This document shows positions 29,958-57,492 of a stretch of 64,000 nt of DNA, piece after piece; position 1 is the stretch's first letter, and every line of letters begins with the position of its first letter. Location of the stretch: NCBI GenBank assembly GCA_965116335.1, contig OZ220677.1, positions 1,315,933-1,379,932 on the forward strand. The letters run 5' to 3'. The position numbers and the translations under genes are program-made. The stretch is from Arenicellales bacterium. GTDB lineage: Bacteria; Pseudomonadota; Gammaproteobacteria; Arenicellales; Poriferihabitantaceae. The notes below the pieces were generated by a model. The model made no database searches, had not been told where the DNA came from, and was given only the letters and a program-made list of their open reading frames with translations.

Positions 29958-30404
29958 TCAAAGAGAATCCGCCTTGTCATCAAAACCTGCCTTCCGATAC
30001 CACATTTTCGCCTGTTCCAGATCCACCTCACAACCTCGGCCTTCCTCATACATCAGGGCCAGAGTCGCCATTGATCCCACCAGCCCCTGATTCGCCGCCT
30101 GAGTGAACCACCAGGCCGCCTGTACCGAATCCTGATCCACACAATCCCCCTCCATATACATGAACCCCAGCCCGTGTTGAGCCAGGGCCAGTGATTGTTC
30201 GGCAGCCAGCTTCATGTTTTTGAAAGCCATCAGTTCATTCCGCACCACACCGAGCCCATTCTGGTGCATGATCGCCATACGATACTGCGCTTCCGCATTG
30301 CCGCCTTCCGCCAAAGGCGACAGGATACGCAATGCCAAAGCGAAATGCTTTGATTCAAATGCGGAAATGCCGCTGCCCAGAATTACCGAAGAGTCATCGT
30401 TCAT
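29958..30404 (-). CDS. Sel1-repeat (TPR-like) protein
   Basis: Three or four Sel1 units, including GNAEAQYRMAIMHQNGLGV, ALAQHGLGFMYMEGDCV, SMATLALMYEEGRGC and EQAKMWYRKAG. Confidence 0.8.
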   Translation of the reverse strand: MNDDSSVILGSGISAFESKHFALALRILSPLAEGGNAEAQYRMAIMHQNGLGVVRNELMAFKNMKLAAEQSLALAQHGLGFMYMEGDCVDQDSVQAAWWFTQAANQGLVGSMATLALMYEEGRGCEVDLEQAKMWYRKAGFDDKADSL

Positions 30405-30508: not shown

Positions 30509-30650
30509 CCGTCTTTCCCGTGTAAACGGGAATCCACAATAATATGGAGATTGCGATTACCTGTCATCGTAGGGGCGCCCCTCTGTGGGTGCCCGCTATC
30601 GTTGATACCTGTTCCGACATTTGCGGGAGGGCACAAGACCCTCCCCTACG
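30509..30650. repeat. REP-type hairpin cluster: module A (inverted) 30509-30537, module B 30568-30605, module C 30624-30650
   Basis: Modules recur throughout 44-60 kb. A = GTGGATTCCCGCCTGCGCGGGAAnGACGG. B = CGTAGGGGCGACCCTCTGTGGTCGCCCGCTAnCGTTGA. C = CGGGAGGGCACAAGACCCTCCCCTACG. Confidence 0.75.
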
Positions 30651-30809
30651 ATAGCGGTTCGATCACTCCACAAAACCCACAAAACCCACTTGACAGGCGA
30701 TGACTCCTTATAGCAAACTTATACTCTCAATATCCGGCAAAAAACAGGCTAACGCAATGAAAAAAATAGAAATAAATTCGATTAAGTCCTTGATTTATAG
30801 TATAATTGA

Positions 30810-30873
30810 CCGGATTACCGGATTACCGGATTACCGGATTACCGGATTACCGGATTACCGGATTACCGGATTA
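30810..30873 (+). repeat. Perfect octanucleotide tandem repeat (CCGGATTA) x 8
   Basis: Counted base by base: 64 nt with no mismatch. Starts 4 nt after a TATAAT hexamer (30801-30806) and ends 25 nt before the first in-frame ATG (30899) of the autotransporter ORF. Confidence 0.95.
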
Positions 30874-30898
30874 CGCTTGGCGCGTCGGCGTGACGGCC

Positions 30899-33800
30899 AT
30901 GAGCGCGTTCGCCTGGTTGCGCCGTTCCCGAGGTTCGTCCTCCCAGCCTGAATCTTCCGCTCCTGCTGGTTGCCGATCCAACACCCGCAAGCCTGCGCCC
31001 GACAATCATTCCCCTCCCCGATCAAGCCGGGGACAGGCTCTTGAGGGGGAATCCACCTCACCCTCCTGTCGCAACCTTGCCGCTGCCCTGCTCTGCCTGC
31101 CACTGCTGGCGCTGTTCACTACCGGAGCGCAGGCGGTAGTGCTGGTCAGCAATCTTGGCCAGGCGGACGGTGGCACCGGAGGGTTACACAACGATCATGC
31201 CCAAAAGTTCACGACCGGCAGCAACGGCTATAAGCTGACCAGCGTCGAGATGGAGTTCGCCAAACTGAACGACACCGATGCCGCCAGCGTCACCTGGACG
31301 GCCACTATCCGAAAAACCAGCGGAAATCGCCCGTTCAGCGCTGTCGATGGCACCCTGACTAATCCTGCTTTTACGACCTTTACCTCCGACACCACGCTGA
31401 CCTTCACCGCCCCTGCCGGAGGCATCAGCCTGGATGCGAATACCAACTACGCTTTCGTGCTGGACCTGTCAGCGCCAATAAACCAAAACAGAAATGCCGT
31501 GCGCAACACGTCATCGCGAGACGAGGACTCCGGTGCCGCAACCGGCTGGAGCTTTCATGATGGGAGTGTGTACAGGGCAGCCGCCAATAGTTCCGGTGGC
31601 ACGACTTCATGGAGCATCTGGAATCAACCCAAAAAAATCCGCATCAATGGCAGCGACGGCTCTGACACCACCGCTCCCCGCATCACCTCCATCACCCGCC
31701 ATACCCCATCCACTTCACCAACCAATGCCGATACCCTCAAATGGCGCGTCACCTTCAATGAACCCGTACAGAATGTGGACGCAGCAGATTTCTCTATCAC
31801 TGGCACCACCGCTACCGTTAGTAGCGTAGTCGAGACTTCAGGCACAATCTACGACATCAGCATATCCAGCGGCAACCTCGCAAGTTTCAACACGATAGTC
31901 ACTCTGGAACTCGACAATAATAACCAAAACATCCAGGACACCTCCGGCAATGCACTCACTAATCTCACGCCCACCGGCACCAATGAAAATACCTACGAGG
32001 TTGACAACCTGAAACCCCGCGTACAATCCTTCACCCGCCAGAACCCATCCACTCAGTCAACCAGCGCCGATACCCTCAAATGGCGCGTCACCTTCAACGA
32101 ATCCGTGAAGAATGTAGACGCAGCAGATTTCAGAATCGTCCCCAACACCCCTCCCCCTACCACCACCGCCACCATTACCAGCGCAACCCAGGTCACGGGT
32201 AACGACCGGGCCTACGATGTCACCGCATCCGGTGGCAACCTGGACAGCTTCAACGGCACCGTAAGGCTCGGCTTCAATACAGTTGGCCACAACATTCACG
32301 ACATAGCCGGTAACAGACTCACCAGCTATGGGCGCATAGGCGCCAATCACAATACCTTCACAGTGAGCAATACTGTACAGCCAACCAACAACGCCCCCAC
32401 GGTAGCCAATGCCATCCCCAACCAGAGTGCCACAGTCGGCACCGCCTTTACCTATGCCTTCCCGACCAATACCTTCAATGATGCCGATAGCGACAGCCTG
32501 ACCTATAGCGCAACAAAATCCGATGACACTGCCCTGCCATCCTGGCTGACTTTCACTACCGGCACCCGTACCTTCTCCGGTACACCGCAATCCGGCGATG
32601 TGGGCACACTATCGGTCAAGGTAACCGCCAATGATGGCAATAGCGGCAGTATCAGTGATACCTTTAACATCGTAGTCAGTGCAGCGGCACCGATCATCCC
32701 CACAGTAGACTTCTCTTCCTCGTCTTCGAGTGTGCTTGAGGATGCCGGTACGCATAACGTGACCGTCAATCTCTCATCTGCCGCACCTTCCGGGGGGCTT
32801 ACCCTGACCTACACGGTAGGCGGCAATGCTACAGCAGGGAGTGGCAATGACTTCACCATCCAGAACCAGGGTACACTGAACGTTATAGCCGGAGCTACAA
32901 CTGCAACTATCCCGGTGGTTATCATTGACGACAGCAACCCCATCACCGAGCCAGTCGAGACCGTCATCCTGACCCTGACCGATGGTACAGGCTACACGCT
33001 CGGCAGTACAACAATCGTACACACACTCACCATTACCGATAATGATGCGCCACTACCGGGTACGCCCGCACTGACACTCTCACAAAACACACTGACCTTC
33101 ACGGAAGGAACCACCGGCAGTTACACAATAGAACTGGCAACCGAGCCAACCGCTACCGTAACGGTGGCTATTGAATCAGATAACGAGGATATAACCATCA
33201 GTCCATCCTCACCGCTCACCTTCACAACCACCAACTGGGACACCGCACAAACCGTAACGGTCCATGCAGGGCAGGATGACGATACCACCGATGACTCCAC
33301 AATCCTCACCCATACCGCATCCGGCGGGAATTACGGCACGGTGACTGGCTCCGTTACCGTGACCGTCAATGATGACGATACCACGATAAACCCAGGTCCG
33401 ACGACACCAACCACAAACCCCGGCGGTGACAATAACAACGACACGCCCCCGGTAGTCACCCCACCCGTCATCCCCCCGGTCACGGTTTCCGCGCAAGCCT
33501 TGACCCTGACCGAAGGCACGATGGCTGCCTATACCCTGGTACTGGACAGCGCTCCGACTACAAGTGTCACCATCGAGATTACGCCCCTGTTCTCACCGGC
33601 CATGAGTCTGCTGTCCACAGCCAGTGTCGGCAGTACCGCACAAGACAACCCGCGCATTACGGTCACGCCCTCTACGGTAGTCTTTACCCCGGATAACTGG
33701 CAAACCCCGCAAAGCATCACCGTAAGTGCAATGGCGAACCAGAATACAACCGAACAAACCGTTCAACTGATTCATCGCATAAAGGGAAGCAATCAACGCG

Positions 33801-35515
33801 TAGCCTCGGTCACCATCACCATACAAGAGCGAGTCATTACGGTCAGCCTGTCTACTCCCGCCCAAGTCACCGAAGGGCAAACCCTGACCGTAACCGTCAC
33901 TGCTGATACCACTCCGACGGTTGATCTGCCGATTGATGTATTGATTCGTGAAACATCCGATACCGACTATATAGAGGATACAGAAGAAGGCACCAAGCGC
34001 GTGACCCTGCCCGCTGGACAAGATCGTATTCGCTATAGCCTCCCGATACGGGATAATGATACAGAAGATACCCAGGCAGGCCGAGTCACCCTCACCATTC
34101 AACCCGGCACCGGCTATACGGTAGCAGGCGGCACGGCGCAGGTCGTCATTACCGATGATGAAGGACAGATTGCCACCACCCCCTGGCTTTCCCGCATGGG
34201 ACGTACACTGGCCGAACAAGCCATAGAGGGTATCAGCGCAAGAATCCATGCTGCACGCACCCCCGGACTGAACGCAACCCTGGCCGGTTGGTCGGTTCCC
34301 ATGAACCCGTCATCAGGAGAATCCCTGGATTCTGAAATCCATACCCTGAACCCGGCTTCTCAAAACCCGGCTTCCGGTCAAACCCTGAATGCACAGGATA
34401 TACTCTCCAACAGTCAGTTTCTCCATACCACCGGCATAGACCTTCGAGGCGGCAATACCGCATGGTGGGGACAAGTCTCTGAAACCGACTTTGCGGGTGT
34501 ACAACACGATATACACACACAAGGAGAAAGCCGAACCATTCAGTTAGGGGGTGACTATGCGGTCAATGACTGGCTGATGGGCATGAGTGTATTGCACAAC
34601 AGCGCAGAAGGAGACAGTCAAAGACGGGGTAATACAGAGCGTCTGGAATCCAATGTAACGGCTTTAATCCCGTACAGCGCCAGAGACCTGGGAAATACCC
34701 ATCTGTGGGGTGCATTGGGCATTGGGCAAGGACAGGTTAGCCGCTACCGGGATAACATTCAACGATCAGAAACCGATATGACCTGGCGGATGATAAGTGC
34801 AGGCACACGCAGTGAATTGAAACAAACCGAAACCACCTCCATGGCACTCATCAGTGATGCCCTGTGGGTGCGTACCGAGTCCGATGAGAGCAAACAAGAC
34901 AATATGAATCCACAAGTCAGTCGCATACGGGCGGGCCTGGAAAGTACATGGAATAAAAGCATTCGGGATATACAGATACAACCCACCTTCACGATAGGCG
35001 CAAGACATGATTCGGGCGGTGCAGAGAGTGGCTTTGGCCTCTATGCCGGTAGTGGACTGCACTGGACTTCTTCTACACTACAAATAGACATAGAAGGGCA
35101 ATATCTTCTGTCTCATCAACAAGAGATAGAAGAAAAAGGGTTCTCGGCTTCACTGATCCATGATCGCAACCCGAACAGTGACTTGGGATTGTCTGTATCC
35201 TTATCGCAACGCAGTATAGCGTCTGGTGGACTTCCATCATTATTTACCCCACAACCTCTGAACATTACCGAATCGAGACCGCGCTGGATGATAGATGCAC
35301 AGTATGGGATGCCTGCATTCAATGGCAGATTTACCGGCAGTCCGCATATCGGGTTGGGACTGGATGGAGATACGACCGATATAGAGCTGGGCTGGCGCAT
35401 GACGCCCCTGACCTATAACAAGAATCTGTCATTGGGTATTCAGGCGACCCGATTGACACAAGAACAAACCGCACCGAAACATTGGTTCGGCGTGGAGGCA
35501 CGGGTGCGGTGGTAG
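30899..35515 (+). CDS. Large type Va autotransporter adhesin with Ig-like, cadherin-like and Calx-beta-like passenger modules
   Basis: C-terminal ~280 aa look like an autotransporter beta-barrel ending FGVEARVRW. The passenger carries 2 tandem ~110-aa repeats (ADTLKWRVTFNE.V.NVDAADF), a cadherin-like module (NNAPTVANAIPNQSATVGTAFTYAFP..DADSDSLTY) and several Calx-beta-like modules (GNDFT...ATIPVVIIDD). Start is uncertain: the track start is TTG 30806 inside the repeat. Confidence 0.85.
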   Translation: MSAFAWLRRSRGSSSQPESSAPAGCRSNTRKPAPDNHSPPRSSRGQALEGESTSPSCRNLAAALLCLPLLALFTTGAQAVVLVSNLGQADGGTGGLHNDHAQKFTTGSNGYKLTSVEMEFAKLNDTDAASVTWTATIRKTSGNRPFSAVDGTLTNPAFTTFTSDTTLTFTAPAGGISLDANTNYAFVLDLSAPINQNRNAVRNTSSRDEDSGAATGWSFHDGSVYRAAANSSGGTTSWSIWNQPKKIRINGSDGSDTTAPRITSITRHTPSTSPTNADTLKWRVTFNEPVQNVDAADFSITGTTATVSSVVETSGTIYDISISSGNLASFNTIVTLELDNNNQNIQDTSGNALTNLTPTGTNENTYEVDNLKPRVQSFTRQNPSTQSTSADTLKWRVTFNESVKNVDAADFRIVPNTPPPTTTATITSATQVTGNDRAYDVTASGGNLDSFNGTVRLGFNTVGHNIHDIAGNRLTSYGRIGANHNTFTVSNTVQPTNNAPTVANAIPNQSATVGTAFTYAFPTNTFNDADSDSLTYSATKSDDTALPSWLTFTTGTRTFSGTPQSGDVGTLSVKVTANDGNSGSISDTFNIVVSAAAPIIPTVDFSSSSSSVLEDAGTHNVTVNLSSAAPSGGLTLTYTVGGNATAGSGNDFTIQNQGTLNVIAGATTATIPVVIIDDSNPITEPVETVILTLTDGTGYTLGSTTIVHTLTITDNDAPLPGTPALTLSQNTLTFTEGTTGSYTIELATEPTATVTVAIESDNEDITISPSSPLTFTTTNWDTAQTVTVHAGQDDDTTDDSTILTHTASGGNYGTVTGSVTVTVNDDDTTINPGPTTPTTNPGGDNNNDTPPVVTPPVIPPVTVSAQALTLTEGTMAAYTLVLDSAPTTSVTIEITPLFSPAMSLLSTASVGSTAQDNPRITVTPSTVVFTPDNWQTPQSITVSAMANQNTTEQTVQLIHRIKGSNQRVASVTITIQERVITVSLSTPAQVTEGQTLTVTVTADTTPTVDLPIDVLIRETSDTDYIEDTEEGTKRVTLPAGQDRIRYSLPIRDNDTEDTQAGRVTLTIQPGTGYTVAGGTAQVVITDDEGQIATTPWLSRMGRTLAEQAIEGISARIHAARTPGLNATLAGWSVPMNPSSGESLDSEIHTLNPASQNPASGQTLNAQDILSNSQFLHTTGIDLRGGNTAWWGQVSETDFAGVQHDIHTQGESRTIQLGGDYAVNDWLMGMSVLHNSAEGDSQRRGNTERLESNVTALIPYSARDLGNTHLWGALGIGQGQVSRYRDNIQRSETDMTWRMISAGTRSELKQTETTSMALISDALWVRTESDESKQDNMNPQVSRIRAGLESTWNKSIRDIQIQPTFTIGARHDSGGAESGFGLYAGSGLHWTSSTLQIDIEGQYLLSHQQEIEEKGFSASLIHDRNPNSDLGLSVSLSQRSIASGGLPSLFTPQPLNITESRPRWMIDAQYGMPAFNGRFTGSPHIGLGLDGDTTDIELGWRMTPLTYNKNLSLGIQATRLTQEQTAPKHWFGVEARVRW

Positions 35516-35523
35516 TAGGGAAA

Positions 35524-35785
35524 TGGGAATCCACAACCATTCGGATGCTGCGCTTAATATCATCGTAGGGGTGCCCCTTGTGGGTGCCCGGTATCGTTGA
35601 TACCCGTTCCGATCATTTGCGGGAGGGTACAAGACCCTCCCCTACGACGTCATTTCGATTCATGCACCAACATCATTCCCCCGCAGACCGGGGAGTCCGC
35701 GATACAAGGGCGAAGCCCGCCGGAGAGCGGGTGGGGGGCACAACCGTCATTCCACGTACCAACCAACCGTCTTTCCCGCAGAGCC
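35524..35785. repeat. REP-type hairpin cluster (truncated A, B variant 35564-35600, C 35620-35646, D-like, truncated A)
   Basis: Same modules as 30509-30650, so the autotransporter gene is bracketed by REP clusters. Confidence 0.7.
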
Positions 35786-35837
35786 TGCCACCGGCCACGG
35801 ATCAAAAAAATCCTTGACTTGGAAAAGGCAAATAGGA

Positions 35838-35859
35838 TTAAATCAATTAAGTTGATTAA
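35838..35859. promoter_or_regulatory. Imperfect AT-rich palindrome TTAAATCAA-TTAAG-TTGATTAA upstream of the polyol operon; candidate operator
   Basis: Read directly from the sequence, 23 bp upstream of the 35882 start. A ROK regulator is encoded at the end of the operon. Confidence 0.25.
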
Positions 35860-35881
35860 TTCGTGAACTCCGGGAGATAAC

Positions 35882-37192
35882 ATGAACTTGAAGACCATTC
35901 TTTGTGCAGTGGGTACACTTGCACTCGTCGCGACAGCCGGCACCCACGCTGCCACCACCGTCACCATTGCAACCGTCAACAACGGCGACATGATCCGAAT
36001 GCAGGGGCTGACAGAGGATTTCACATCCAGCAATCCCGACATTACCCTGGAATGGGTCACGTTGGAAGAGAACGTACTGCGCCAGCGTGTGACCCAGGAC
36101 ATTGCCACCAAAGGCGGCCAATTCGATGTGCTGACCATCGGCACCTACGAGGTTCCGATCTGGAGCAAGAACGGCTGGCTCGTATCATTGAACGACCTGC
36201 CCGCCGGATGGGATGCCGATGACCTGCTTCCCGCGATACGCTCCGGCCTGACCGTCGATGGCGAGCTGTACGCCGCACCGTTCTACGGGGAGAGTTCCAT
36301 GGTCATGTACCGCACCGACCTGATGAAGAAAGCCGGCCTCGAAATGCCCGAAGCGCCGACCTGGGATTTCATCAGGCAAGCGGCGGCAGCGATGACCGAC
36401 CGCGACAACGAGATCTACGGCGTCTGCCTCCGCGGAAAGGCCGGTTGGGGCGAGAACATGGCATTTCTGACCGCCACCGCGAACTCCTTCGGCGCGCGCT
36501 GGTTTGACGAGAACTGGAAACCCCGGTTCGACAGCGAAGCCTGGGCCGACACGCTCAACTACTACATGGACCTGATGACCAACTATGGTCCTCCGGGAGC
36601 CTCGACCAACGGATTCAACGAGAACCTGTCCCTCTTCCAGCAAGGCAAGTGCGGCATGTGGATTGATGCAACCGTGGCAGCCTCTTTCGTGACCAACCCG
36701 AACGACTCGACAGTGGCCGACAGTGTCGGATTCGCTCTGGCTCCTGATAAGGGTCTCGGCAAGCGCGGCAACTGGCTGTGGGCCTGGTCGCTGGCCATCC
36801 CGGCCGGTTCCGACTCGACGGATGCGGCAAAGAAGTTCATCGCCTGGGCAACCAGCAAGGAATACACGGCGCTCGTAGCATCGAAAGAAGGCTGGGCTAA
36901 TGTCCCGCCCGGCACCCGAACCTCGCTGTACGAGAATCCCGCTTATCTGGAGGCTGCGCCCTTCGCCCGGATGACACTGAACTCGATCAACGCAGCCAAC
37001 CCGAAGCAACCGACCGTCGATCCGGTGCCCTATACCGGTGTCCAGTTCGTCGCCATTCCAGAGTTCGCGGGCATTGCCACGCAAGTGGGACAGGAATTCT
37101 CGGCTGCGCTGGCCGGTCAGCAGACCGTCGAGCAGGCACTCGAGAAGGCACAGGCCCTGACCGCCGAGGAGATGGAGGCTGCCGGCTACTGA
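35882..37192 (+). CDS. Sugar-alcohol ABC transporter substrate-binding protein (SmoE/MtlE-like)
   Basis: Signal peptide MNLKTILCAVGTLALVATAGTHA and a family-1 solute-binding sequence. Operon context includes mannitol dehydrogenase and fructokinase. Confidence 0.8.
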   Translation: MNLKTILCAVGTLALVATAGTHAATTVTIATVNNGDMIRMQGLTEDFTSSNPDITLEWVTLEENVLRQRVTQDIATKGGQFDVLTIGTYEVPIWSKNGWLVSLNDLPAGWDADDLLPAIRSGLTVDGELYAAPFYGESSMVMYRTDLMKKAGLEMPEAPTWDFIRQAAAAMTDRDNEIYGVCLRGKAGWGENMAFLTATANSFGARWFDENWKPRFDSEAWADTLNYYMDLMTNYGPPGASTNGFNENLSLFQQGKCGMWIDATVAASFVTNPNDSTVADSVGFALAPDKGLGKRGNWLWAWSLAIPAGSDSTDAAKKFIAWATSKEYTALVASKEGWANVPPGTRTSLYENPAYLEAAPFARMTLNSINAANPKQPTVDPVPYTGVQFVAIPEFAGIATQVGQEFSAALAGQQTVEQALEKAQALTAEEMEAAGY

Positions 37193-37228
37193 TGACGGCA
37201 TCAGCCTGACCTGAAAAGGAACGGCGTC

Positions 37229-38095
37229 ATGGCAACCCTGCACGCAAGGTCCGCCGCCCGCCTGATGATGGCGCCCGCGGTTGTCCTGCTGCTTGGCTGG
37301 ATGCTCGTGCCCCTGACCATGACGCTCTACTTTTCGTTCAAGCGCTACCTGCCGCTGCGAGGCGGCGACCTGGGGTGGGTCGGGTTCGAGAACTATATCC
37401 GCTTTGTCAGCTCAAGCTCGTTCTGGCCGAGTGTGCAGGCGACACTCATTATCGTCGGTGGCGTGCTGCTTACCACCGTGGTTCTGGGCATCCTGCTCGC
37501 GCTGCTGCTGGATCAGCCGATGTGGGGGCAGGGCATCGTCCGGATACTGGTCATCGCGCCGTTCTTCGTGATGCCGACCGTTTCGGCGCTGGTCTGGAAG
37601 AATATGTTCATGGATCCGGTGAACGGGCTGTTCGCGCATCTCTGGAAATTCTTCGGCCTGATACCGCTGGAATGGCTGAGTCAGGCATCACTCTTTTCCA
37701 TCACCCTGATCGTCTCGTGGCAATGGCTGCCCTTCGCAACGCTGATCCTGCTGACCGCGATCCAGTCGCTGGATCGCGAGCAACTGGAAGCTGGCGAGAT
37801 GGACGGCGCCCCGCCCCTGGCCCGCTTCCGCCATATCATCCTGCCGCACCTCGGTCAGGCCATTACCATCGTCATCCTGATCCAGACGATATTCCTGTTG
37901 TCGATTTTCGCCGAAATCTTCGTGACGACGCAGGGTTCATTCGGTACCCGGACGCTGACCTATCTGATCTTCCAGCGTGTGTTGGAAAGTCAGAATGTGG
38001 GGCTCGGTTCGGCCGGCGGCATCTACGCGGTCATCCTCGCCAACATTGTGGCGCTCTTCCTGATGCGCATCGTCGGCAAGAATCTGGATACGTGA
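37229..38095 (+). CDS. Sugar ABC transporter permease (SmoF/MtlF-like)
   Basis: Six TM segments. EAA-type loop LDREQLEAGEMDGAPPLARFRHIILP. Confidence 0.85.
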   Translation: MATLHARSAARLMMAPAVVLLLGWMLVPLTMTLYFSFKRYLPLRGGDLGWVGFENYIRFVSSSSFWPSVQATLIIVGGVLLTTVVLGILLALLLDQPMWGQGIVRILVIAPFFVMPTVSALVWKNMFMDPVNGLFAHLWKFFGLIPLEWLSQASLFSITLIVSWQWLPFATLILLTAIQSLDREQLEAGEMDGAPPLARFRHIILPHLGQAITIVILIQTIFLLSIFAEIFVTTQGSFGTRTLTYLIFQRVLESQNVGLGSAGGIYAVILANIVALFLMRIVGKNLDT

Positions 38096-38105
38096 GGGGC
38101 AGAGC

Positions 38106-38936
38106 ATGGCGCGCACGGTTACCAGCAAGCGGAAGGCCGTCAACACCGCCGTCGCCTGGGGGATCGGCCTGCTGATCTTCTTCCCGGTACTGTGGACCAT
38201 CCTGACCAGCTTCAAGACCGAATCACAGGCAATTGCCGACCCGCCGGTTTTCCTGTTCTTCGACTGGACGCTGGAGAATTATGCGATCGTGCAGGAGCGC
38301 TCGGACTATATGCGCTATCTCTGGAACTCGGTGATCATCGCCGGCGCCTCCACGCTGCTCGGCATCCTCATCGCGGTTCCCGCCGCATGGTCCATGGCCT
38401 TCGTGCCATCGAAACGGACCAAAGACATCCTGCTCTGGATGCTTTCCACCAAGATGCTGCCGGCGGTCGGCGTACTCTACCCGGTCTACCTGATCTTCAT
38501 CGAGTTCGGACTCCTCGACACGCGCTCCGGTCTTGTCATCGTCATGATGCTGATCAACCTGCCGATCATCGTCTGGATGCTGTACACCTATTTCCGGGAA
38601 ATTCCCGGCGAGATCCTGGAAGCCGCGCGCATGGACGGCGCATCACTGCGCAATGAAATCCTGTATGTACTGACCCCCATGGCCGTACCGGGTATCGCCT
38701 CAACCATGCTGCTGAACTTCATCCTGGCCTGGAACGAGGCGTTCTGGACGCTGAACCTGACGGCGGCGAAAGCCGCTCCGCTGACCGCCTTCATCGCCAG
38801 TTATTCAAGCCCCGAGGGTCTGTTCTACGCCAAGCTGAGCGCGGCATCAACCATGGCCATCGCGCCGATCCTGATCCTGGGATGGTTCAGCCAGAAACAA
38901 CTGGTGCGCGGCCTGACTTTCGGCGCGGTCAAGTGA
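38106..38936 (+). CDS. Sugar ABC transporter permease (SmoG/MtlG-like)
   Basis: EAA loop [28 protein letters not shown]. Polytopic. Confidence 0.85.
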
Positions 38937-38946
38937 GGATAGAGAG

Positions 38947-39951
38947 ATGGGACACATCGTACTGGACAAGGTGAAGAAGAGTTTCAATGATCTCACCGTC
39001 ATTCCTCCCCTGGATCTCGAGATGGAGGATGGTGAGTTCGTCGTTTTCGTCGGCCCCTCCGGTTGCGGCAAATCGACTCTCCTGCGGCTGATTGCGGGGC
39101 TTGAGGATGTCACTGGCGGCACGATCAGGATCGACGGGCAGGACGCGACCGCCGTACCGCCCGCCAGGCGCGGACTCGCCATGGTTTTTCAGTCCTACGC
39201 GCTCTATCCCCACATGACGGTTCGCAAGAACATCAGTTTTCCCCTTCGGATGGCGAAGCTGGATCAGGCCGAGCAGGAGCGGCGAGTGCAACAGGCAGCC
39301 GAGGTCCTGAACCTCACCGAATACCTCGACCGGCGACCCGGCCAGCTTTCCGGCGGCCAGCGCCAGCGCGTGGCTATCGGCCGTGCCATCGTGCGTGAAC
39401 CATCCGCTTTCCTGTTCGACGAGCCGCTCTCTAATCTCGACGCAGCGCTCCGCGTCGGCATGCGTCTTGAAATCAGCGAACTGCATAAGCGGCTGAAAAC
39501 GACCATGATCTACGTCACCCACGACCAGGTCGAGGCGATGACCATGGCGGACAAGATCGTCGTCCTCCAGGCCGGGAGGATAGAGCAGGTGGGCTCGCCA
39601 CTGGAACTCTACCGGACACCCCGCAACCGGTTCGTTGCCGGGTTCATCGGCTCCCCCGGAATGAACTTCCTGGAAGGGATTGAAGCCAGCAAGCACGATG
39701 CAACTATGATCGGCATCCGCCCCGAACACATCACGCCGTCACCGGATGAGGGCATCTGGAAGGGGCGAGTGGGCGTCGCCGAACATCTCGGTTCGGACAC
39801 GTTCTTCCACGTCCATATAGAGGAATGCGCCGAACCAGTCACCGTGAGATCAGGCGGCGAGGTGGACATGCACCACGGTGACACGATCTATTTGACCCCG
39901 GATGCCCAACAGATCCATCGGTTCGACGAGCGGGGTCTGCGCATTGGGTGA
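38947..39951 (+). CDS. Sugar ABC transporter ATP-binding protein (MalK/UgpC/SmoK-like)
   Basis: [37 protein letters not shown], and a MalK-type C-terminal domain. Confidence 0.9.
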
Positions 39952-39953
39952 AG

Positions 39954-41444
39954 ATGATCCGTCTATCGAACGCCACGCTGAGCGACCTGCCGGAAACGAT
40001 TGCCCGGCCAGGCTATGACCGAACCTCCCTGACTCCGGGGATCATTCATGTCGGGGTCGGAAATTTCCATCGGGCGCATCAGGCGTGGTATCTGCATCGG
40101 CTGTTGCAGATGGGTCTCAACCACGATTGGGCGATCATTGGCGCCGGTATCCGCCCCTACGATGCCACGCAACGAAGCAAGCTCAGGCAGCAGGATTACC
40201 TGTCGACGCTGATTGAGCTGGATTCATCAGGCATATCGGCAGAGGTGATTGGCGCGATGATTGACTATATTCCAGTCGAGCAGGGCAACGCCGCCCTGAT
40301 CCGCCGGATGACCGATCCGGCGATCCGGATTGTCGAGCTGACGGTGACCGTAGGAGGCTACTACATTGATCCCGCGACCCATGGTTTCGACACGGCGCAT
40401 CCCGACATACTGCACGACGTCGCCAATCCAGAGCGCCCGCGCACCGTGTTTGGCGCGATGGTTGCAGCGCTCAGGTGCAGACGCGATCAGGGGTTCGGCC
40501 CGTTCACCGGCCAGAGTTGCGACAACCTCCGGAACAATGGCGCGGTGCTCCGCCAGACCCTGGTTTCACTCGCACAGGCAACCGACCCGGACCTTGCCAG
40601 ATGGATTGACTCGAACTGCACGTTCCCGAACTCGATGGTCGACTGTATCGTGCCCGCCACCGGCCCGGACGAACTCACACTGGCACGCAAATTCGGCATT
40701 GATGATCAGGTTCCGGTCACACATGAGAGCTTCCGCCAGTGGGTTATCGAGGATGACTTCTGCGCCGGGCGTCCGGACTGGGAGCGGGTCGGCGCCACTT
40801 TTTCGGACAGCGTCCATGGCCATGAGGCGATGAAGATCCGCATCCTGAATGCCGGTCACCAGGTCATTGCCAATCCCGGTGAAATCCTGTCCATCGAAAC
40901 CATTTCGGACTGCATGGCACAGCCCCTGATTCGCGATCTATTCTACAAGGTGCTACATGAGGAAATCCTTCCCCATGTAAAATCGGTTCCGAATCTCACG
41001 AAAGAAGACTACCTGGATCGGATCAGTCGGAGATTCTCCAACACCGCTATCGCCGATACGCCACGGCGCGTTGCCGCCGAGGGATCGGCACGCCATACCT
41101 GCTTTATTCTGCCGATCCTGCGTGACGGGCTTAAGGTCGGCACACCGATCGAGGGACTCGCACTGGTCGAGGCATTGTGGGCGCGGATGTGTGCGGGGCA
41201 ACGAGAGGACGGCACCGTCATCGAGCCGAACGACCCGCTCTGGGACAGCCTTCTGGAGGCGGCCAATGTGGCACGAGAACATCCGCGCGCCTGGCTGGAA
41301 CAACGCCAGTTCTACGGTGACCTGGTGGAGGCGCCCCGTTTCGTCGATGCCTTCGAACGCTGGCTCAACAAGCTCTGGTCGGATGGGTGCGAGGCGACCC
41401 TGCAGACCTATGTGGCCGCCTGTCCGGCACGTTCATGCAACTAA
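39954..41444 (+). CDS. Long-chain mannitol dehydrogenase family enzyme (mannitol 2-dehydrogenase / polyol dehydrogenase)
   Basis: PGYDRTSLTPGIIHVGVGNFHRAHQAWY is the family N-terminal signature. GTG 39948 (a GTGA overlap with the upstream gene) is an alternative start. Confidence 0.85.
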   Translation: MIRLSNATLSDLPETIARPGYDRTSLTPGIIHVGVGNFHRAHQAWYLHRLLQMGLNHDWAIIGAGIRPYDATQRSKLRQQDYLSTLIELDSSGISAEVIGAMIDYIPVEQGNAALIRRMTDPAIRIVELTVTVGGYYIDPATHGFDTAHPDILHDVANPERPRTVFGAMVAALRCRRDQGFGPFTGQSCDNLRNNGAVLRQTLVSLAQATDPDLARWIDSNCTFPNSMVDCIVPATGPDELTLARKFGIDDQVPVTHESFRQWVIEDDFCAGRPDWERVGATFSDSVHGHEAMKIRILNAGHQVIANPGEILSIETISDCMAQPLIRDLFYKVLHEEILPHVKSVPNLTKEDYLDRISRRFSNTAIADTPRRVAAEGSARHTCFILPILRDGLKVGTPIEGLALVEALWARMCAGQREDGTVIEPNDPLWDSLLEAANVAREHPRAWLEQRQFYGDLVEAPRFVDAFERWLNKLWSDGCEATLQTYVAACPARSCN

Positions 41445-46375: not shown

Positions 46376-47026
46376 TCAGGAGAAAATCTGTGGTTTGAAA
46401 TTGTCCTTGTTGATAATGCTGGCGCTGTTGCCGGTGGCTCTGATTACGAATAATCCCTGTTTCTCTGCGTAGACATGCGCTTGTTCATCAGATTTTAACC
46501 AGGCCATCGCTCCATAGACGGTGTTTTTCTTAAAACGCGGCATGCGAGTCGTAACCTTACCCACACTGACCAGGAAATCCTTGACATCCTGCGCCTTCAA
46601 GGTGGTCTTGACTTCAACCACTACAATTTCCTGACCATTGGCCGCAATAATGTCATATTCAAAGTTATCATCGGAGCCGCTTTGTGAAATATTCCGGTAA
46701 ATCTGGTAAACATGAACGCCCTTCTCCTGTAACATCGCAACCAAATCCCCCTCTACCAGACTCTCCACCAACCGTCCCCACCGGCTGTTAAAAGAAGCTT
46801 CGTTCTTTTTAATCTGCTTGTCGGTTTCTTTCATTCGTCTGTCGGTTTCCTTCATTTCCTGCATGAGCCTTTCATGGTCGGCGGCCTGCCTGGCAGCGAT
46901 TTCTGCTATTTCCTGCATGGCTTTTTCATGTCTGGCAGCTTCTCTGGCAGCACCTTCCTCCTGGGCAGCGGCAGTTCTTTCCAAAATCGCCCAGATTTCG
47001 TCTGGAGTGGGTACGGTGGTGGTCAT
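46376..47026 (-). CDS. Coiled-coil + PD-(D/E)XK nuclease-fold protein (DUF3782-like), paralog P1
   Basis: 216 aa. Has a Glu/Ala/Arg-rich N-terminal coiled coil. The C-terminal FEYDIIAANGQEIVVVEVKTTL gives a D-x12-E-V-K motif. Reverse-strand TATAAT (47057-47062) and an AAGGA RBS lie upstream. Confidence 0.8.
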   Translation of the reverse strand: MTTTVPTPDEIWAILERTAAAQEEGAAREAARHEKAMQEIAEIAARQAADHERLMQEMKETDRRMKETDKQIKKNEASFNSRWGRLVESLVEGDLVAMLQEKGVHVYQIYRNISQSGSDDNFEYDIIAANGQEIVVVEVKTTLKAQDVKDFLVSVGKVTTRMPRFKKNTVYGAMAWLKSDEQAHVYAEKQGLFVIRATGNSASIINKDNFKPQIFS

Positions 47027-47132
47027 TTTGATATTCCTTACGGGTAGCGATTGCGGATTATAGCAGAATCGGGGTTGGAGGCGGAGACTGTTCGGGTCTA
47101 TGACATCATTTAATCACAAAGCCCATATTGTT

Positions 47133-47242
47133 GTGGATTCCCGCCTGCGCGGGAAGGACGGGTTGGGGCGGGGGTTGATGGTTGGGTCCCCCCATCACAC
47201 CCGCTTTGCGGGATGTGATTCCCCCTCAAGGGGGGAATGATG
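47133..47242. repeat. REP cluster: module A 47133-47161, module DE 47186-47242
   Basis: Direct reading: hairpins TTCCCGC/GCGGGAA and ATTCCCCC/GGGGGGAAT. Confidence 0.7.
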
Positions 47243-47257
47243 TGATGGTGGGTTGTG

Positions 47258-47566
47258 TCAATCCGTAATTACCGGCCACTGCTCTACCACGCCGGATAAA
47301 TGCCCTATCTGTTGCGTAAGCTGGTTAATTTGCTGGTTGCCCTGATACACAAACCCCAGTATGACCAGTGTCAAAACAAAATGTAATCCGAACATCCAGC
47401 GCAATCCGGCTACATCTCGCTGGACTCCGGCAATGTCAGACTTTGTTGCTAACTGTTCGCCCTGATGCGCGACTGCCTCGGCTACCGCTTCGGCCTGGCT
47501 TGATTCAAACCCGGCTGCTTGCAGTTTTCGTGCTGTCGCCAGTGTGTCGATGGTATACGCTGCCAT
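47258..47566 (-). CDS. DUF1640/CCDC90-like tail-anchored coiled-coil protein, paralog D1 (head N1, tail C1)
   Basis: MAAYTIDTLATARKLQAAGFESSQAEAVAEAV...LATKSDI fits the FDTLxxxxxLxxAGxxxxQAEA...LATKxDL pattern. One C-terminal TM, MFGLHFVLTLVILGFVY. Confidence 0.75.
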   Translation of the reverse strand: MAAYTIDTLATARKLQAAGFESSQAEAVAEAVAHQGEQLATKSDIAGVQRDVAGLRWMFGLHFVLTLVILGFVYQGNQQINQLTQQIGHLSGVVEQWPVITD

Positions 47567-47636
47567 GTCTGTTTCTCCGCTTGTTATTTTATATGTGTCC
47601 TCTGTGGATGGATTCTGCCTGAATCCGTCCGCCCGG

Positions 47637-47800
47637 TCAACGGTAGCGGGCGACCACAGAGGGTCGCCCCTACGATGACTTTACGTGCGGTATCTGAATG
47701 GTTGTGGATTCCCGCCTGCGCGGGAAAGACGGGTTGGGACGAGAAAATCACTCCCCCCTTGAGGGGGAGTCAAATCCGCTTGCGGATTTGGTGGGGGGAC
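47637..47800. repeat. REP cluster: B 47637-47674, A 47704-47732, DE (reverse) 47747-47800
   Basis: Direct reading. The same B-A-DE order recurs at 48711-48874. Confidence 0.75.
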
Positions 47801-47823
47801 GTCGGGGGAAATGATTGGCCTGT

Positions 47824-48627
47824 TCAGGAGAAAATCTGTGGTTTGAAATTGTCCTTGTTGATGATGCTGGCACTGTTGCCGGTGGCTCTGATTACAAATA
47901 ATCCCTGTTTCTCTGCATAGACATGCGCTTGCTCATCAGACTTTAACCAGGCGATCGCTCCATAGACGGTTTTGTCCTTAAAACTCTGCATTCGAGTCGT
48001 AACCTTACCCACACTGACCAGGAAATCCTTGACATCCTGCGCCTTCAAGGTGGTCTTGACTTCAACCACTACAATTTCCTGACCATTGGCCGCAATAATG
48101 TCATATTCAAAGTTATCATCGGAGCCGCTTTGTGAAATATTCCGGTAAATCTGGTAAACATGAACGCCCTTCTCCTGTAACATCGCAACCAAATCCCCCT
48201 CTACCAGACTCTCCACCAACCGTCCCCACCGGCTGTTAAAAGAAGCTTCGTTCTTTTTAATCTGCTTGTCGGTTTCTTTCATTCGTCTGTCGGTTTCCTT
48301 CATTTCCTGCATGAGCTCTTCATGGTCGGCGGCCTGCCTGGCAGCGATTTCTGCTATTTCCTGCATGGATTTTTCATGTCTGGCATCCTCTCTGGCGGCA
48401 GCTTCCTTCCGCCTGGCATCTTCTATGGCGGCGGCTTCCTTCCGCCTGGCATCCTCTATAGCGGCGGCTTCCTCCTGTCTGGCAGCAGCAGCTTCCTCTC
48501 TGGCAGCAGCAGCTTCCTGTCTGGCAGCGGTTTCTTTGCTGATGGCGGCGGTTTCTTCCAGGTTGGCGGAAACTTCTTTCAGAATCGCCCAGATTTCGTC
48601 TGGAGTGGGTACGGTGGTGGTGGTCAT
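47824..48627 (-). CDS. Coiled-coil + PD-(D/E)XK nuclease-fold protein, paralog P2 (longest coiled coil)
   Basis: 267 aa from ATG 48627 (MTTTTVPTPDEIW). The track ORF extends to 48825 only by reading through REP hairpins. The C-terminal ~150 aa are nearly identical to P1, P3 and P4. Confidence 0.8.
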   Translation of the reverse strand: MTTTTVPTPDEIWAILKEVSANLEETAAISKETAARQEAAAAREEAAAARQEEAAAIEDARRKEAAAIEDARRKEAAAREDARHEKSMQEIAEIAARQAADHEELMQEMKETDRRMKETDKQIKKNEASFNSRWGRLVESLVEGDLVAMLQEKGVHVYQIYRNISQSGSDDNFEYDIIAANGQEIVVVEVKTTLKAQDVKDFLVSVGKVTTRMQSFKDKTVYGAIAWLKSDEQAHVYAEKQGLFVIRATGNSASIINKDNFKPQIFS

Positions 48628-48710
48628 TTCGACATTCCTTACAGGTAGCGATTGCGGATTATAGCAGAATCGGGGTTGGAGGCGGAGACTGTTCGGGATC
48701 GGAACGGGTG

Positions 48711-48874
48711 TCAACGATAGCGGGCGACCACAGAGGGTCGCCCCTACGATGACTTTACGTGCGGTATCTGAATGGGTGTGGATTCCCGCTTGTGCGGGAA
48801 TGACGGGTTGGGACGAGAAAATCACTCCCCCCTTGAGGGGGAGTCAAGTCCGCTTGCGGATTTGGTGGGGGGAC
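48711..48874. repeat. REP cluster: B 48711-48748, A 48778-48806, DE (reverse) 48821-48874
   Basis: Direct reading. Confidence 0.75.
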
Positions 48875-48897
48875 GTCGGGGGAAATGATTGGCCTGT

Positions 48898-49647
48898 TCA
48901 GGAGAAAATCTGTGGTTTGAAATTGTCCTTATTGATGATGCTGGCGCTGTTGCCGGTGGCTCTGATCACGAATAATCCCTGTTTCTCTGCATAAACATGC
49001 GCTTGTTCATCAGATTTTAACCAGGCTATCGCTCCATACACGGTGTTATCCTTGAAACGCGGCATGCGAGTCGTAACCTTACTCATACTCACCAGGAAAT
49101 CCTTGACATCCTGCGCCTTCAGGGTGGTCTTGACTTCAACCACTACAATTTCCTGACCATTGGCCGCAATAATGTCATATTCAAAGTTATCATCGGAGCC
49201 GCTTTGTGAAATATTCCGGTAAATCTGGTAAACGTGAACGCCCTTCTCCTGTAACATCGCAACCAAATCCCCCTCTACCAGACTCTCCACCAACCGTCCC
49301 CACCGGCTGTTAAAAGAAGCTTCGTTCTTTTTAATCTGCTTGTCGGTTTCTTTCATTCGTCTGTCGGTTTCCTTCATTTCCTGCATGAGCTCTTCATGGT
49401 CGGCGGCCTGCCTGGCAGCGATTTCTGCTATTTCCTGCATGGCTTTTTCATGTCTGGCATCTTCTATGGCGGCGGCTTCCTTCCGCCTGGCATCCTCTAT
49501 AGCGGCGATTTCTTTTTGGCTGGCGCGAAATTCTGCCATTTCCTGTCTGCCTTTTTCATGGGCCGCGGCGGTTTCCTCCTGGGCAGCGGCGGTTCTTTCC
49601 AAAATCGCCCAGATTTCGTCTGGAGTGGGTACGGTGGTGGTGGTCAT
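48898..49647 (-). CDS. Coiled-coil + PD-(D/E)XK nuclease-fold protein, paralog P3
   Basis: 249 aa from ATG 49647. Same leader, RBS and C-terminal domain as the other paralogs, with a different coiled-coil insert (HEKGRQEMAEFRASQKEIAAIEDARRKE...). Confidence 0.8.
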   Translation of the reverse strand: MTTTTVPTPDEIWAILERTAAAQEETAAAHEKGRQEMAEFRASQKEIAAIEDARRKEAAAIEDARHEKAMQEIAEIAARQAADHEELMQEMKETDRRMKETDKQIKKNEASFNSRWGRLVESLVEGDLVAMLQEKGVHVYQIYRNISQSGSDDNFEYDIIAANGQEIVVVEVKTTLKAQDVKDFLVSMSKVTTRMPRFKDNTVYGAIAWLKSDEQAHVYAEKQGLFVIRATGNSASIINKDNFKPQIFS

Positions 49648-49730
49648 TTCGACATTCCTTACAGGTAGCGATTGCGGATTATAGCAGAATTGGGGTTGGA
49701 GGCGGAGACTGTTCGGGATCGGAACGGGTG

Positions 49731-50139
49731 TCAACGATAGCGGGCGACCACAGAGGGTCGCCCCTACGATGACTTTACGTGCGGTATCTGAATGGTTGTG
49801 GATTCCCGCCTGCGCGGGAAAGACGGATTGGGGCATGCGATGACGGTTGGGTCCCCCCATCCAATCCGGCTGCGGATTGGATTCCCCCTCAAGGGGGGAA
49901 TGATGTTGTAGAGCCTGCGCCTGACCGTTATCGTAGGGGAGGGTCTTGTGCCCTCCCGGGAATGTCGGGCGGGTATCAACGGTAGCGGGCGACCACAGAG
50001 GGTCGCCCCTACGATGACTTTACGTGCGGTATCTGAATGGGTGTGGATTCCCGCTTGTGCGGGAATGACGGGTTGGGACGAGAAAATCACTCCCCCCTTG
50101 AGGGGGAGTCAAGTCCGCTTGCGGATTTGGTGGGGGGAC
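49731..50139. repeat. REP cluster: B 49731-49768, A 49798-49826, DE 49851-49905, C (reverse) 49932-49958, B 49976-50013, A 50043-50071, DE (reverse) 50086-50139
   Basis: Direct reading. Seven modules in 409 bp. Confidence 0.75.
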
Positions 50140-50162
50140 GTCGGGGGAAATGATTGGCCTGT

Positions 50163-50879
50163 TCAGGAGAAAATCTGTGGTTTGAAATTGTCCTTATTGA
50201 TGATGCTGGCGCTGTTGCCGGTGGCTCTGATTACGAATAATCCCTGTTTCTCTGCATAAACATGCGCTTGTTCATCAGACTTTAACCAGGCGGTCGCTCC
50301 ATAGACGGTTTTGTCCTTAAAACTCTGCATTCGAGTCGTAACCTTACCCACACTGACCAGGAAATCCTTGACATCCTGCGCCTTCAAGGTGGTCTTGACT
50401 TCAACCACTACAATTTCCTGACCATTGGCCGCAATGATGTCATATTCAAAGTTATCATCGGAGCCGCTTTGTGAAATATTCCGGTAAATCTGGTAAACAT
50501 GAACGCCCTTCTCCTGTAACATCGCAACCAAATCCCCCTCTACCAGACTCTCCACCAACCGTCCCCACCGGCTGTTAAAAGAAGCTTCGTTCTTTTTAAT
50601 CTGCTTGTCGGTTTCTTTCATTCGTCTGTCGGTTTCCTTCATTTCCTGCATGAGCTCTTCATGGTCGGCGGCCTGCCTGGCAGCGATTTCTGCTATTTCC
50701 TGCATGGCTTTTTCATGTCTGGCATCCTCTATGGCGGCGGCTTCCTCCTGTCTGGCAGCAGCAGCTTCCTGTCTGGCAGCGGTTTCTTTGCTGATGGCGG
50801 CGGTTTCTTCCAGGTTGGCGGAAACTTCTTTCAGAATCGCCCAGATTTCGTCTGGAGTGGGTACGGTGGTGGTGGTCAT
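50163..50879 (-). CDS. Coiled-coil + PD-(D/E)XK nuclease-fold protein, paralog P4
   Basis: 238 aa from ATG 50879. Matches P2 but lacks two internal repeat units. Confidence 0.8.
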   Translation of the reverse strand: MTTTTVPTPDEIWAILKEVSANLEETAAISKETAARQEAAAARQEEAAAIEDARHEKAMQEIAEIAARQAADHEELMQEMKETDRRMKETDKQIKKNEASFNSRWGRLVESLVEGDLVAMLQEKGVHVYQIYRNISQSGSDDNFEYDIIAANGQEIVVVEVKTTLKAQDVKDFLVSVGKVTTRMQSFKDKTVYGATAWLKSDEQAHVYAEKQGLFVIRATGNSASIINKDNFKPQIFS

Positions 50880-53766: not shown

Positions 53767-53910
53767 CTACCCAGACTCCAGATTGTTGGTTGGTTCAGCA
53801 TCAGCGCAGGCGCCAACGCCCGAATTAGCAATATCCAGCGATATTAAACGCAACAATAAACAAAGTCAAACAAAAGAACATCCAATCATTGCCCGGTCTG
53901 CGGCAAGAAA

Positions 53911-54060: not shown

Positions 54061-54104
54061 CATCGTTCGTTGTTTGACGGATTGTGTCAATTCTCCCTGA
54101 TGCG

Positions 54105-57469: not shown

Positions 57470-57492
57470 TTGATGATGGTTGTGGATTGCGG

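Follow-up and report, generated by a model that had tools for sequence, protein, structure and literature searches.

The window analysed here, a stretch of 64,000 nucleotides from contig OZ220677.1 of an Arenicellales bacterium, carries on its plus strand a mismatch-free tract of eight tandem copies of CCGGATTA (30810–30873), at the 5' end of a gene for a giant autotransporter adhesin. Tandem Repeats Finder delimits the tract as 30809–30874, with a period of 8, 8.2 copies, 100% matches and a score of 132, and the 16-mer CCGGATTACCGGATTA, allowed up to two mismatches, occurs seven times, every one within the tract, against a shuffle expectation of 0.03. The tract begins 4 nt downstream of a TATAAT hexamer (30801–30806), and an ATG at 30899, in frame with the adhesin, lies 25 nt 3' of its last unit. 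Two open reading frames (ORFs) run through it: one of 83 residues (30700–30951), which includes the ATG at 30757, crosses the tract and ends at the stop codon 30949–30951, and the other, of 1569 codons, is open from a TTG at 30806 to 35515. On these points we agree with a first-pass annotation of the same DNA, which had described the perfect repeat of eight 8-bp units, its distances from TATAAT and ATG 30899, and the passage of the upstream ATGs at 30700 and 30757 through the tract to a stop at 30951.

The ATGs at 30700 and 30757 belong to frame 1 and the codons at 30806 and 30899 to frame 2, such that a gain of 8 nt or a loss of 16 nt would unite the frame of the two upstream ATGs with that of the long ORF; the earlier statement that nine or six units would fuse them to the adhesin is arithmetically correct. 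Equally sound was the remark that the repeat is stop-free in every frame: all eight cyclic codons of the unit are sense codons, and translation of the tract in any frame would give (RITGLPDY)n-type repeats. We refer to the three frames that enter the tract as a (TAA/TTG ACC GGA), b (AAT TGA CCG) and c (ATA ATT GAC CGG). Frame c stays open back to ATG 30757; frame a has a single canonical start codon, the TTG at 30806–30808 (plus strand), which directly follows the stop codon TAA and has no Shine-Dalgarno motif. At its present eight units, the window has the adhesin out of frame with ATG 30757 and in frame with TTG 30806 and ATG 30899. A perfect tandem repeat with a unit length not divisible by three, present in eight copies here and in up to 30 in relatives (contigs from ENA assemblies that encode homologs of the adhesin or its neighbours, found by protein look-up), is a feature expected of a translational contingency locus.

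Beyond the tract, positions 30874–31066 (plus strand) form a stop-free stretch that contains ATG 30899 and a piece resembling a repetitive extragenic palindromic (REP) element (..CTCTTGAGGGGGAATCC..); the frame of the signal peptide has no stop codon here, each of the other two frames has two, and we presume that the stretch is translated as an N-terminal extension. It leads into a Sec-type signal peptide, identified by eye from the translation (31067–31135, plus strand; ..CRNLAAALLCLPLLALFTTGAQA/VV, with the core also given as ..LLCLPLLALFTTGAQA/VV), and all relatives carry a homologous one, RRLRSGLxRFLLALPLLLGxAAGAQA/Q. The mature autotransporter (31136–35515, plus strand) comprises, on the evidence of Pfam and fold, a He_PIG/Calx-beta passenger and a C-terminal β-barrel (about 34457–35512). 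In the passenger, Pfam finds He_PIG at E=1.5e-19 and Calx-beta at E=3.4e-5, the latter under its curated cut-off (24.3 versus 27 bits). The C-terminus has no match to Pfam PF03797 or in a sequence search of the PDB, and BLASTP links it weakly (E=0.05) to the PF03797 region of the protein P0074. Modelled with AlphaFold, the C-terminal 401 residues (34310–35515) are all-β, at moderate confidence (pLDDT 58), and the best 16 matches of the model in a Foldseek search of the PDB are autotransporter β-domains, among them Hbp (3aeh, E=1.5e-11) and EspP (2qom, TM 0.77, target-normalised), followed by BrkA, AIDA-I, EstA and NalP. The modelled fold confirms the C-terminus as the β-barrel translocator, 12-stranded in this class, of a type Va (classical) autotransporter, and the predicted Sec signal peptide, together with the large passenger, supplies the N-terminal features of that type; the earlier description of the giant ORF as an autotransporter holds, although PF03797 itself gives no match.

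The database annotation obscures this arrangement. The adhesin is entered as P0016 (1458 aa), which begins at a GTG at 31139, past the cleavage site of the signal peptide, and the ORF of ATG 30757 is entered separately as P0173, a hypothetical protein of 64 aa (30757–30951). Splitting such genes into a small hypothetical ORF and an adhesin devoid of a signal peptide hides both the family and its secretion signal in the databases. Four paralogs (P0020, P0021, P0024 and P0027) have annotated starts inside the signal peptide or in REP or insertion-sequence DNA.

The tract does not stand alone; it is the last part of a module of ~120 bp that precedes paralogous autotransporter genes, as seen in an alignment of seven such cassettes (alignment A2, mean column identity 84%). 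The module reads, in order, CACTTGACAGG, N18 and TACATT; CTCAATATCCGGCAAAAA(A)CAGGCT; ATGA with about 18 codons; CTTGATTTnTnGTATAATTGA; and the octamer tract, or, in short form, TTGACA-N18-TACATT, leader, ATG, 18 codons, TATAATTGA and tract. At least six copies occur in the genome from which the window comes, and related genomes hold more. In the window, the conserved leader (30723–30756, plus strand; CTCAATATCCGGCAAAAAACAGGCT..) includes an A-run of variable length and offers a weak AGG 10–12 nt before the ATG; its segment ATCCGGCAA (30732–30740) is complementary at 8 of 9 positions to every TTACCGGAT of the tract. The cassette ATG that follows opens frame c, which at eight units gives an ORF of 64 aa (30757–30951, plus strand), and its ATGA is invariant in the seven cassettes. 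The TATAAT hexamer (plus strand) forms part of an invariant GTATAATTG in the same alignment, and may be a secondary −10 element or just a piece of a translated AT-rich region.

Several other roles for the cassette were considered and set aside. The cassette ORF does not behave as a conserved peptide, given that its copies differ mainly by non-synonymous substitutions and keep only the ATG and the frame. An RNA element in the leader is ruled out by an Rfam search without a match and by folding no better than that of shuffled sequences (z = −1.08), and a role as a sponge for CsrA/RsmA, suggested by a GGA in each unit, was dropped when units of the types CCGACTTA and CCGGCTTA proved to lack GGA. 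The two A-runs of the cassette (30741–30746 and 30760–30766) vary among loci, as GGC(A)5-7CAGG in the leader and as ATG(A)7-8 after the start, and in the relative L023 an additional A shifts the first ATG off the frame, whose start is then supplied by a second one. These runs could be extra sites of slippage or could reflect plain drift.

The best candidate for a promoter lies at the 5' end of the cassette. In the window, the candidate P1 (30690–30719, plus strand) combines TTGACA (30690–30695) with an 18-nt spacer and CAAACT (30714–30719), a weak version of the family's TACATT; its TTGAC is invariant in the seven aligned cassettes. The family form, TTGACA-18-TACATT, located ~110 nt 5' of the tract, scores 10/12 in promoter scans of the relatives L024 and L023. 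In a scan of the window, the local copy of P1, with its degenerate −10 CAAACT, fails, and TATAAT, which has no −35 element, fails too. The proposal in the first-pass annotation that TATAAT is the promoter is doubtful on these grounds, together with the better conservation of TTGACA-N18-TACATT farther upstream, and the hexamer is probably not the main promoter of the gene. Should translation of the tract begin at an upstream codon, the hexamer would lie inside the mRNA, overlapping TTG 30806 and within the ORF of ATG 30757.

The number and the sequence of the units vary widely among loci. We added to the relatives L008, from the contig OZ243941.1, labelled Ca. Poriferihabitaceae (Arenicellales), which was found by a pattern scan of a genome collection, and we read the unit counts and states of the paralogs in the window genome (a contig of 2,987,679 bp) from annotated proteins. 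Against 8 × CCGGATTA in the window, L008 has 16 units (15 × CCGGATTA and CCGGATTG), L020 has 20 (18 × CCGACTTA, CCGGCTTA and CCGGCTTG), L022 has 7 × CCGGATCA, L023 has 30 units that are mostly CCGGATTA, L024 and L027 each have six (5 × CCGGATCA and CCGGATTG), and L025 has three. Within the window genome, the paralogs P0158, P0142 and P0141 have 9, 12 and 13 units, P0023 has 7, and P0019 has 13 × CCGGATCA. A further member of the family, P0184, carries a CCGGCTTA tract. A sister group with another upstream region keeps a tract at the equal position, (CCGGATCA)x16 in L029 and (CCGGATCA)x18 in L030, and in L026, from a relative with a genome of 2.70 Mb, the equivalent position (1991–2045) holds a tetramer tract, (GCCA)x~14, right after TTGACA-N18-GACAAT. 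The first-pass annotation had called for a comparison of unit numbers between strains, and the count is not fixed at eight; it ranges from 3 to 30 per locus, with units of the sequences CCGGATTA, CCGGATCA, CCGACTTA and CCGGCTTA.

Two comparisons place this variation between otherwise conserved flanks. Over 8349 bp, the window (31660–40000) and L020 show 99.16% identity, and they have identical ABC-transporter genes downstream, yet these orthologs carry 8 versus 20 units and differ in unit sequence too. L023 and L027, both 3' of queG, share upstream flanks that are 97.6% identical and carry 30 versus 6 units. Such a change of copy number between strains and paralogs with conserved flanks is characteristic of contingency loci, and because the tracts are internally homogeneous and their units differ from locus to locus, the pattern is the one expected of an actively slipping repeat. 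L020 also has an insertion sequence (707–1870; HTH_Tnp_1 and rve) between the tract and the adhesin gene, in a strain that is 99.2% identical to that of the window, and the N-terminus of P0021 in the window genome is identical to the insertion-sequence-derived one of L020, which marks this paralog as disrupted alike. Both insertions suggest permanent inactivation besides any phase switching.

Comparative evidence points to translation of the tract. In all seven uninterrupted loci, the frame of the signal peptide is free of stops over the 86–422 nt between tract and signal peptide and is open through the tract too, and the other two frames of the same loci contain 30 stops in 14 frames. Shuffling gives probabilities of 0.025–0.45 per locus and a product of 1.7e-7, a figure that overstates the true significance since the loci are paralogous. 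The intervening DNA is anything but uniform: 3' of the tract, the relatives have a conserved 50-nt segment (..GACCAGCCTGCGCCTGCTTCATCGAACCCTGACCGTTTAAC..), then one to four REP-like palindromic elements, then the signal peptide, and the REP insertions differ by locus, adding ~37 codons in L023 and ~62 in L027 relative to L025, with the frame kept in each. These elements, of the type found in the window and of related types, are always in frame and stop-free where they lie between tract and signal peptide, and there they appear to be translated. An intergenic REP-like copy just 5' of the cassette (30510–30665, plus strand; inverted repeats I3–I5) has stops in the equivalent frame, as judged by eye.

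The distribution of start codons leads to the same view. L008, L024, L025 and L026 have no ATG, GTG or TTG immediately 5' of the signal peptide. Upstream of it, the first in-frame canonical start is reached after 24 nt in L022 (a GTG), after 81 nt in L008 and after 105 nt in L023, L025 and L027, always within the REP-derived stretch, and L024 and L026 have no in-frame canonical start anywhere between tract and signal peptide. Because there is no canonical start nearby, gene callers place the starts inside or after the signal peptide; for the same reason, translation would begin at or before the tract. An ATC beside the signal peptide was tried as a non-canonical start and rejected, being out of frame in the window and replaced by ACC in L027. 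The frame of the signal peptide in L026 is open back across the GCCA tract, and no canonical in-frame start was found there at all. Fusions of the predicted kind are already present among the annotated genes: P0019 and P0023 of the window genome, and P0184, are each annotated as a single ORF that opens at the cassette ATG, spans the tract and enters the signal peptide, and that in P0019 and P0023 continues into the adhesin. In L008, the frame of the cassette ATG is likewise continuous across the tract into the signal peptide. Taken together, these observations make it most likely that the tract is translated.

The phase of the signal peptide relative to the upstream sequence is not random either. 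Given the common flank, unit numbers of 0, 1 and 2 mod 3 place the signal peptide in frames a, c and b, respectively. Nine intact loci are in frame a (the window, L022, L023, L024, L025 and L027, together with P0141, P0142 and P0158, for which the frame was deduced from small ORFs as tract plus flank length mod 3), four are in frame c (L008, P0019, P0023 and P0184), and none of the 13 is in frame b, the sole frame-b locus being L020 with its disrupting insertion sequence. By chance, frame b would be absent with a probability of (2/3)^13, about 0.005, and this non-random phase argues that the frame is set by initiation 5' of the tract.

Two readings of the start codon remain, and the present state of the window copy depends on which codon is used. 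Under the one, (i), translation starts at ATG 30757, which would make about 30% of loci ON and the window copy OFF, one unit away from ON. This share is near the expectation of one-third and near that observed for autA of Neisseria meningitidis (PMC5118866). Reading (i) would need a mutational bias to explain the excess of frame a over frame b. Under the other, (ii), TTG 30806 initiates too or instead, and the window copy would be ON. It is possible that the two codons act in a milder variant, in which ATG 30757 and TTG 30806 make two of the three phases productive, with different N-termini, and only frame b is OFF. A +1 frameshift programmed by GAU UGA C where the tract ends was judged unlikely by reasoning, as tRNA-Asp is unable to re-pair on AUU. 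In the sister group, the frame of the signal peptide takes two different phases relative to the upstream sequence in L029 and L030, and neither is the frame of the single upstream ATG.

We therefore favour, with a probability of roughly 60%, the interpretation of this site as a contingency (phase-variation) locus under translational control, with the tract as its variable element. Transcription would start upstream of the cassette, probably at the TTGACA-N18-TACATT-like promoter at 30690–30719, and translation would start upstream of the tract or at its edge, at ATG 30757 (frame c) or at TTG 30806 (frame a). Ribosomes would then cross the tract and read on through an extension, disordered and free of stops, to reach the signal peptide (31067–31135) and the adhesin, and slippage by one or two 8-bp units would move the adhesin into or out of the frame of the start codon, whereas a gain or loss of three units would merely make a cleaved N-terminal extension longer or shorter by eight residues. 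With ATG 30757 as the start, the adhesin would be in frame at six or nine units. Translation of the extension would be expected to leave peptides such as ITGLPDYR, ITGSPDHR, IDQPAPASSNPDR and MSAFAWLR. The promoter, the start codon and the translation of the tract are inferred, as are switching within populations and any adaptive role. What stands of the first-pass proposal of a slipped-strand switch of a surface adhesin is the hypervariable tract tied to an autotransporter family, with the comparative data in favour of its frame mechanism and P0019 and P0023 as the fusions it predicted; the promoter role of TATAAT is doubtful.

A number of observations weigh against this interpretation. A −10-like hexamer stands 3–4 nt before the tract in three contexts, namely TATAAT-tga in the window (30801–30806), TACAAT-cta in L029 (2304–2309) and L030, and GACAAT-attt in L026 (1983–1988), which hints that transcription starts at the tract; the translational model leaves this abutting hexamer unexplained and so keeps alive the alternative that the tract forms the 5' end of the transcript. 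In L029, a consensus promoter, TTGACA-16-GACAAT, overlaps the sole upstream ATG of the open frame. The candidate start codons are weak, TTG 30806 having no Shine-Dalgarno motif and ATG 30757 only an AGG at −12 to −10, and other genes of the window do have GGAG or AGGAG motifs. ATG 30899 is in frame 3' of the tract in window-type loci, and its use would make expression independent of unit number. An extension of 50–230 residues before a Sec signal peptide is unusual. The paralogy of the loci means that the statistics of the open frame exaggerate the evidence, and L028, a low-quality contig of 3x coverage that was set aside, has no single frame joining tract and signal peptide.

The abutting hexamer is the starting point of an alternative that we regard as improbable, in which TATAAT is the −10 element, the mRNA starts in the first unit, and the length of an untranslated tract tunes the mRNA or its translation like a rheostat, with ATG 30899 as the start. 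The three contexts in which the hexamer occurs are unrelated, L024 has TCGACT-17-TATAAT with an upstream, extended TG that scores 10/12, ATG 30899 is in frame 25 nt past the tract, and there is a precedent in the octamer (GCATCATC)12-15 found 5' of hmw1A/hmw2A in Haemophilus influenzae biogroup aegyptius (PMC3309571). Yet the window's TATAAT has neither a −35 element nor a TG, and most relatives lack a canonical start between tract and signal peptide; moreover, only the frame of the signal peptide is stop-free back to the tract, a property superfluous in an untranslated leader, frame b occurs in 0 of 13 intact loci, which makes the phase with respect to the sequence upstream non-random, and the leader has neither significant structure (z = −1.08) nor an Rfam match. 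The first-pass annotation had offered a similar alternative, with the tract at the extreme 5' end of the transcript; the abutting hexamer speaks for it, and the open frame and the fused genes make it less likely. The same hexamer (TATAAT/TACAAT/GACAAT) would also serve a more remote scheme, which we think very improbable, in which the mRNA starts there and ribosomes initiate inside the tract at weak sites, the GGA of the previous unit standing 7 nt before AUU or AUC, so that unit number scales output and the REP-derived extension is disposable. It would account for the absence of canonical downstream starts in relatives, ATT or ATC occurs within the units of most intact loci, and one-third of the units are in the frame of the signal peptide at any unit number. 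AUU and AUC are, however, poor initiation codons, near-cognate start codons are missing from the CCGGCTTA tract of P0184 as well as from the GCCA tract of L026, and the scheme predicts no phase preference, yet frame b is missing in the 13 intact loci.

The tract might instead be a neutral hypervariable repeat, a hotspot carried along with a recombining 5' cassette, with constitutive expression from ATG 30899 or, in relatives, from a non-canonical codon close to the signal peptide. Window-type loci possess ATG 30899, and the same octamer occurs sporadically in ordinary intergenic DNA of unrelated bacteria, both of which suit this explanation; we nevertheless consider it unlikely, since a perfect and long tract has been kept at one position in at least 15 loci of several species and in four unit variants, and since 1-nt and 8-nt indels in the flank compensate for changes of unit number, as the lengths of tract plus flank in the window, P0158, P0142 and P0141 (89, 98, 122 and 122 nt) are all equal mod 3. 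The open frame from tract to signal peptide in 7/7 loci speaks against neutrality as well, as does the ATC beside the signal peptide, which is not conserved and reads ACC in L027.

Some observations concern the repeat outside this gene family. Scanning the genome collection for (CCGGATTA)x3 returned 19 loci, of which L008 is the sole member of the present system; the CCGGATTA octamer otherwise occurs in 3–8 copies in ordinary intergenic DNA of 18 unrelated genomes, and no association with secreted proteins was seen at these unrelated loci. A Rhodobacter metagenome-assembled genome (MAG), CAZRLO01, contributes four contigs (L001, L004, L015 and L017) with the octamer after cTTGAAAACAC..TATT, and in the two that have downstream sequence (L001 and L015) long arrays of degenerate octamers (CTGGTCCA, CCGGTCTA and others) follow; L003, L012 and L013 are among the other unrelated loci. 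Small ORFs with (TGLPDYRT)n or (ITGLQDYR)n in Salmonella and in metagenomes probably represent similar repeats. Scans of JGI metagenomes for the cassette (GTCCTTGATTTATNGTATAATTGA; CTCAATATCCGGCAAAAAN{0,3}CAGGCT) gave zero matches. The string GGAUCACC, which spans CCGGATCA units (L022, L024, L027, L029, L030 and P0019), matches exactly, rather than complements, a segment of the 3'-terminal 16S rRNA sequence, which we take to be ..GGAUCACCUCCUUA as in Escherichia coli; this is probably a coincidence.

The surroundings of the locus are rich in repeats of other kinds. The REP-like family, GTAGGGGCG(C/A)CCCTCTGTGG(G/T)(T/C)GCCCGCTA.., has six cores in the window (30569, 47644, 48718, 49738, 49983 and 50970), with compensatory changes in the stems of its copies. 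Just 5' of the cassette, a divergent gene on the minus strand (29958–30404) encodes a Sel1-repeat protein of 148 aa; Sel1-type, eukaryote-like repeat proteins are often reported in sponge symbionts. Farther along, 46376–50879 (minus strand) hold four tandem paralogs of an Hjc-like protein of the PD-(D/E)XK type (216–267 aa) with identical ribosome-binding regions, variable N-terminal regions made of 21-nt and 33-nt repeats, and REP-like elements between the genes. The region at 53850–57500 and 54783–56923 contains no ORF of at least 180 aa and is occupied by large tandem repeats (units of 396 bp and 451 bp, 95% identical) and by 21-nt repeats (CTTTCAGGTCGGACTGTACTA), and the ORFs that flank it (51319–53766 and 57493–59643) have no Pfam match. 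Similar arrays of 21-, 54- and 417-nt repeats, encoding small ORFs, lie 5' of the adhesin in L029.

Textbooks describe contingency loci in pathogens adapted to a host, for example Neisseria, Haemophilus, Campylobacter and Helicobacter. The same logic appears here in a multi-copy cassette placed before an autotransporter family, in uncultured gammaproteobacteria from ENA metagenome assemblies. If our interpretation is correct, symbionts would vary their surface adhesins stochastically, which would point to fluctuating selection by the host, through recognition or phagocytosis, by phages or by neighbouring cells. A literature search for phase variation by simple repeats in sponge symbionts found nothing relevant. 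MAGs of Ca. Poriferihabitaceae have been reported from HiFi metagenomes of sponges (PMC12859430).

Among known systems, the mechanism proposed here is best matched by the AAGC tract of autA/autB, together with the CTCTT tract of opa. In N. meningitidis autA/autB, AAGC repeats in the DNA of the autotransporter's signal region number 2–32 units between isolates and set the frame, and most copies can be out of phase (PMC5118866). Like the present tract, those of autA/autB (homologous to lav of H. influenzae) have a unit that is not a multiple of three, lie at the 5' end of a type Va autotransporter gene and vary in number. Theirs is a 4-bp unit within the DNA of the signal sequence, whereas here the unit is 8 bp and is separated from the signal peptide by 86–422 nt of stop-free, REP-derived DNA, and the bearer is an uncultured, probable sponge symbiont in which one cassette is common to at least six loci per genome and the frame effect is predicted from sequence. 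The Neisseria opa genes reportedly carry CTCTT pentamer repeats in the region coding for the leader peptide (Stern et al. 1986). They resemble the present family, on the interpretation favoured here, as a multigene family of outer-membrane adhesins with a coding repeat near each 5' end, whose copies switch independently by frame and whose 5' ends recombine between paralogs; they differ in that Opa proteins are small barrels of eight strands and no autotransporters, the unit measures 5 bp and the repeat encodes part of the hydrophobic core of the signal peptide itself.

The hmw1A/hmw2A genes of H. influenzae provide the nearest counterpart for the position of the tract, with the 7-bp ATCTTTC, or the octamer GCATCATC in 12–15 copies in biogroup aegyptius, in a putative promoter region (PMC3309571). 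In both cases, a repeat of 7–8 bp lies 5' of the gene for a large secreted adhesin, beside promoter elements. The HMW repeats, however, are untranslated, grade transcription and belong to two-partner secretion, whereas the open frame and the fused paralogs here point to translation. What appears distinctive of the present system is the combination of an 8-bp unit that is probably coding, a tract 5' of the signal peptide, apparently translated REP-derived spacers and a cassette shared by at least six loci per genome, in an uncultured, non-pathogenic, host-associated lineage.

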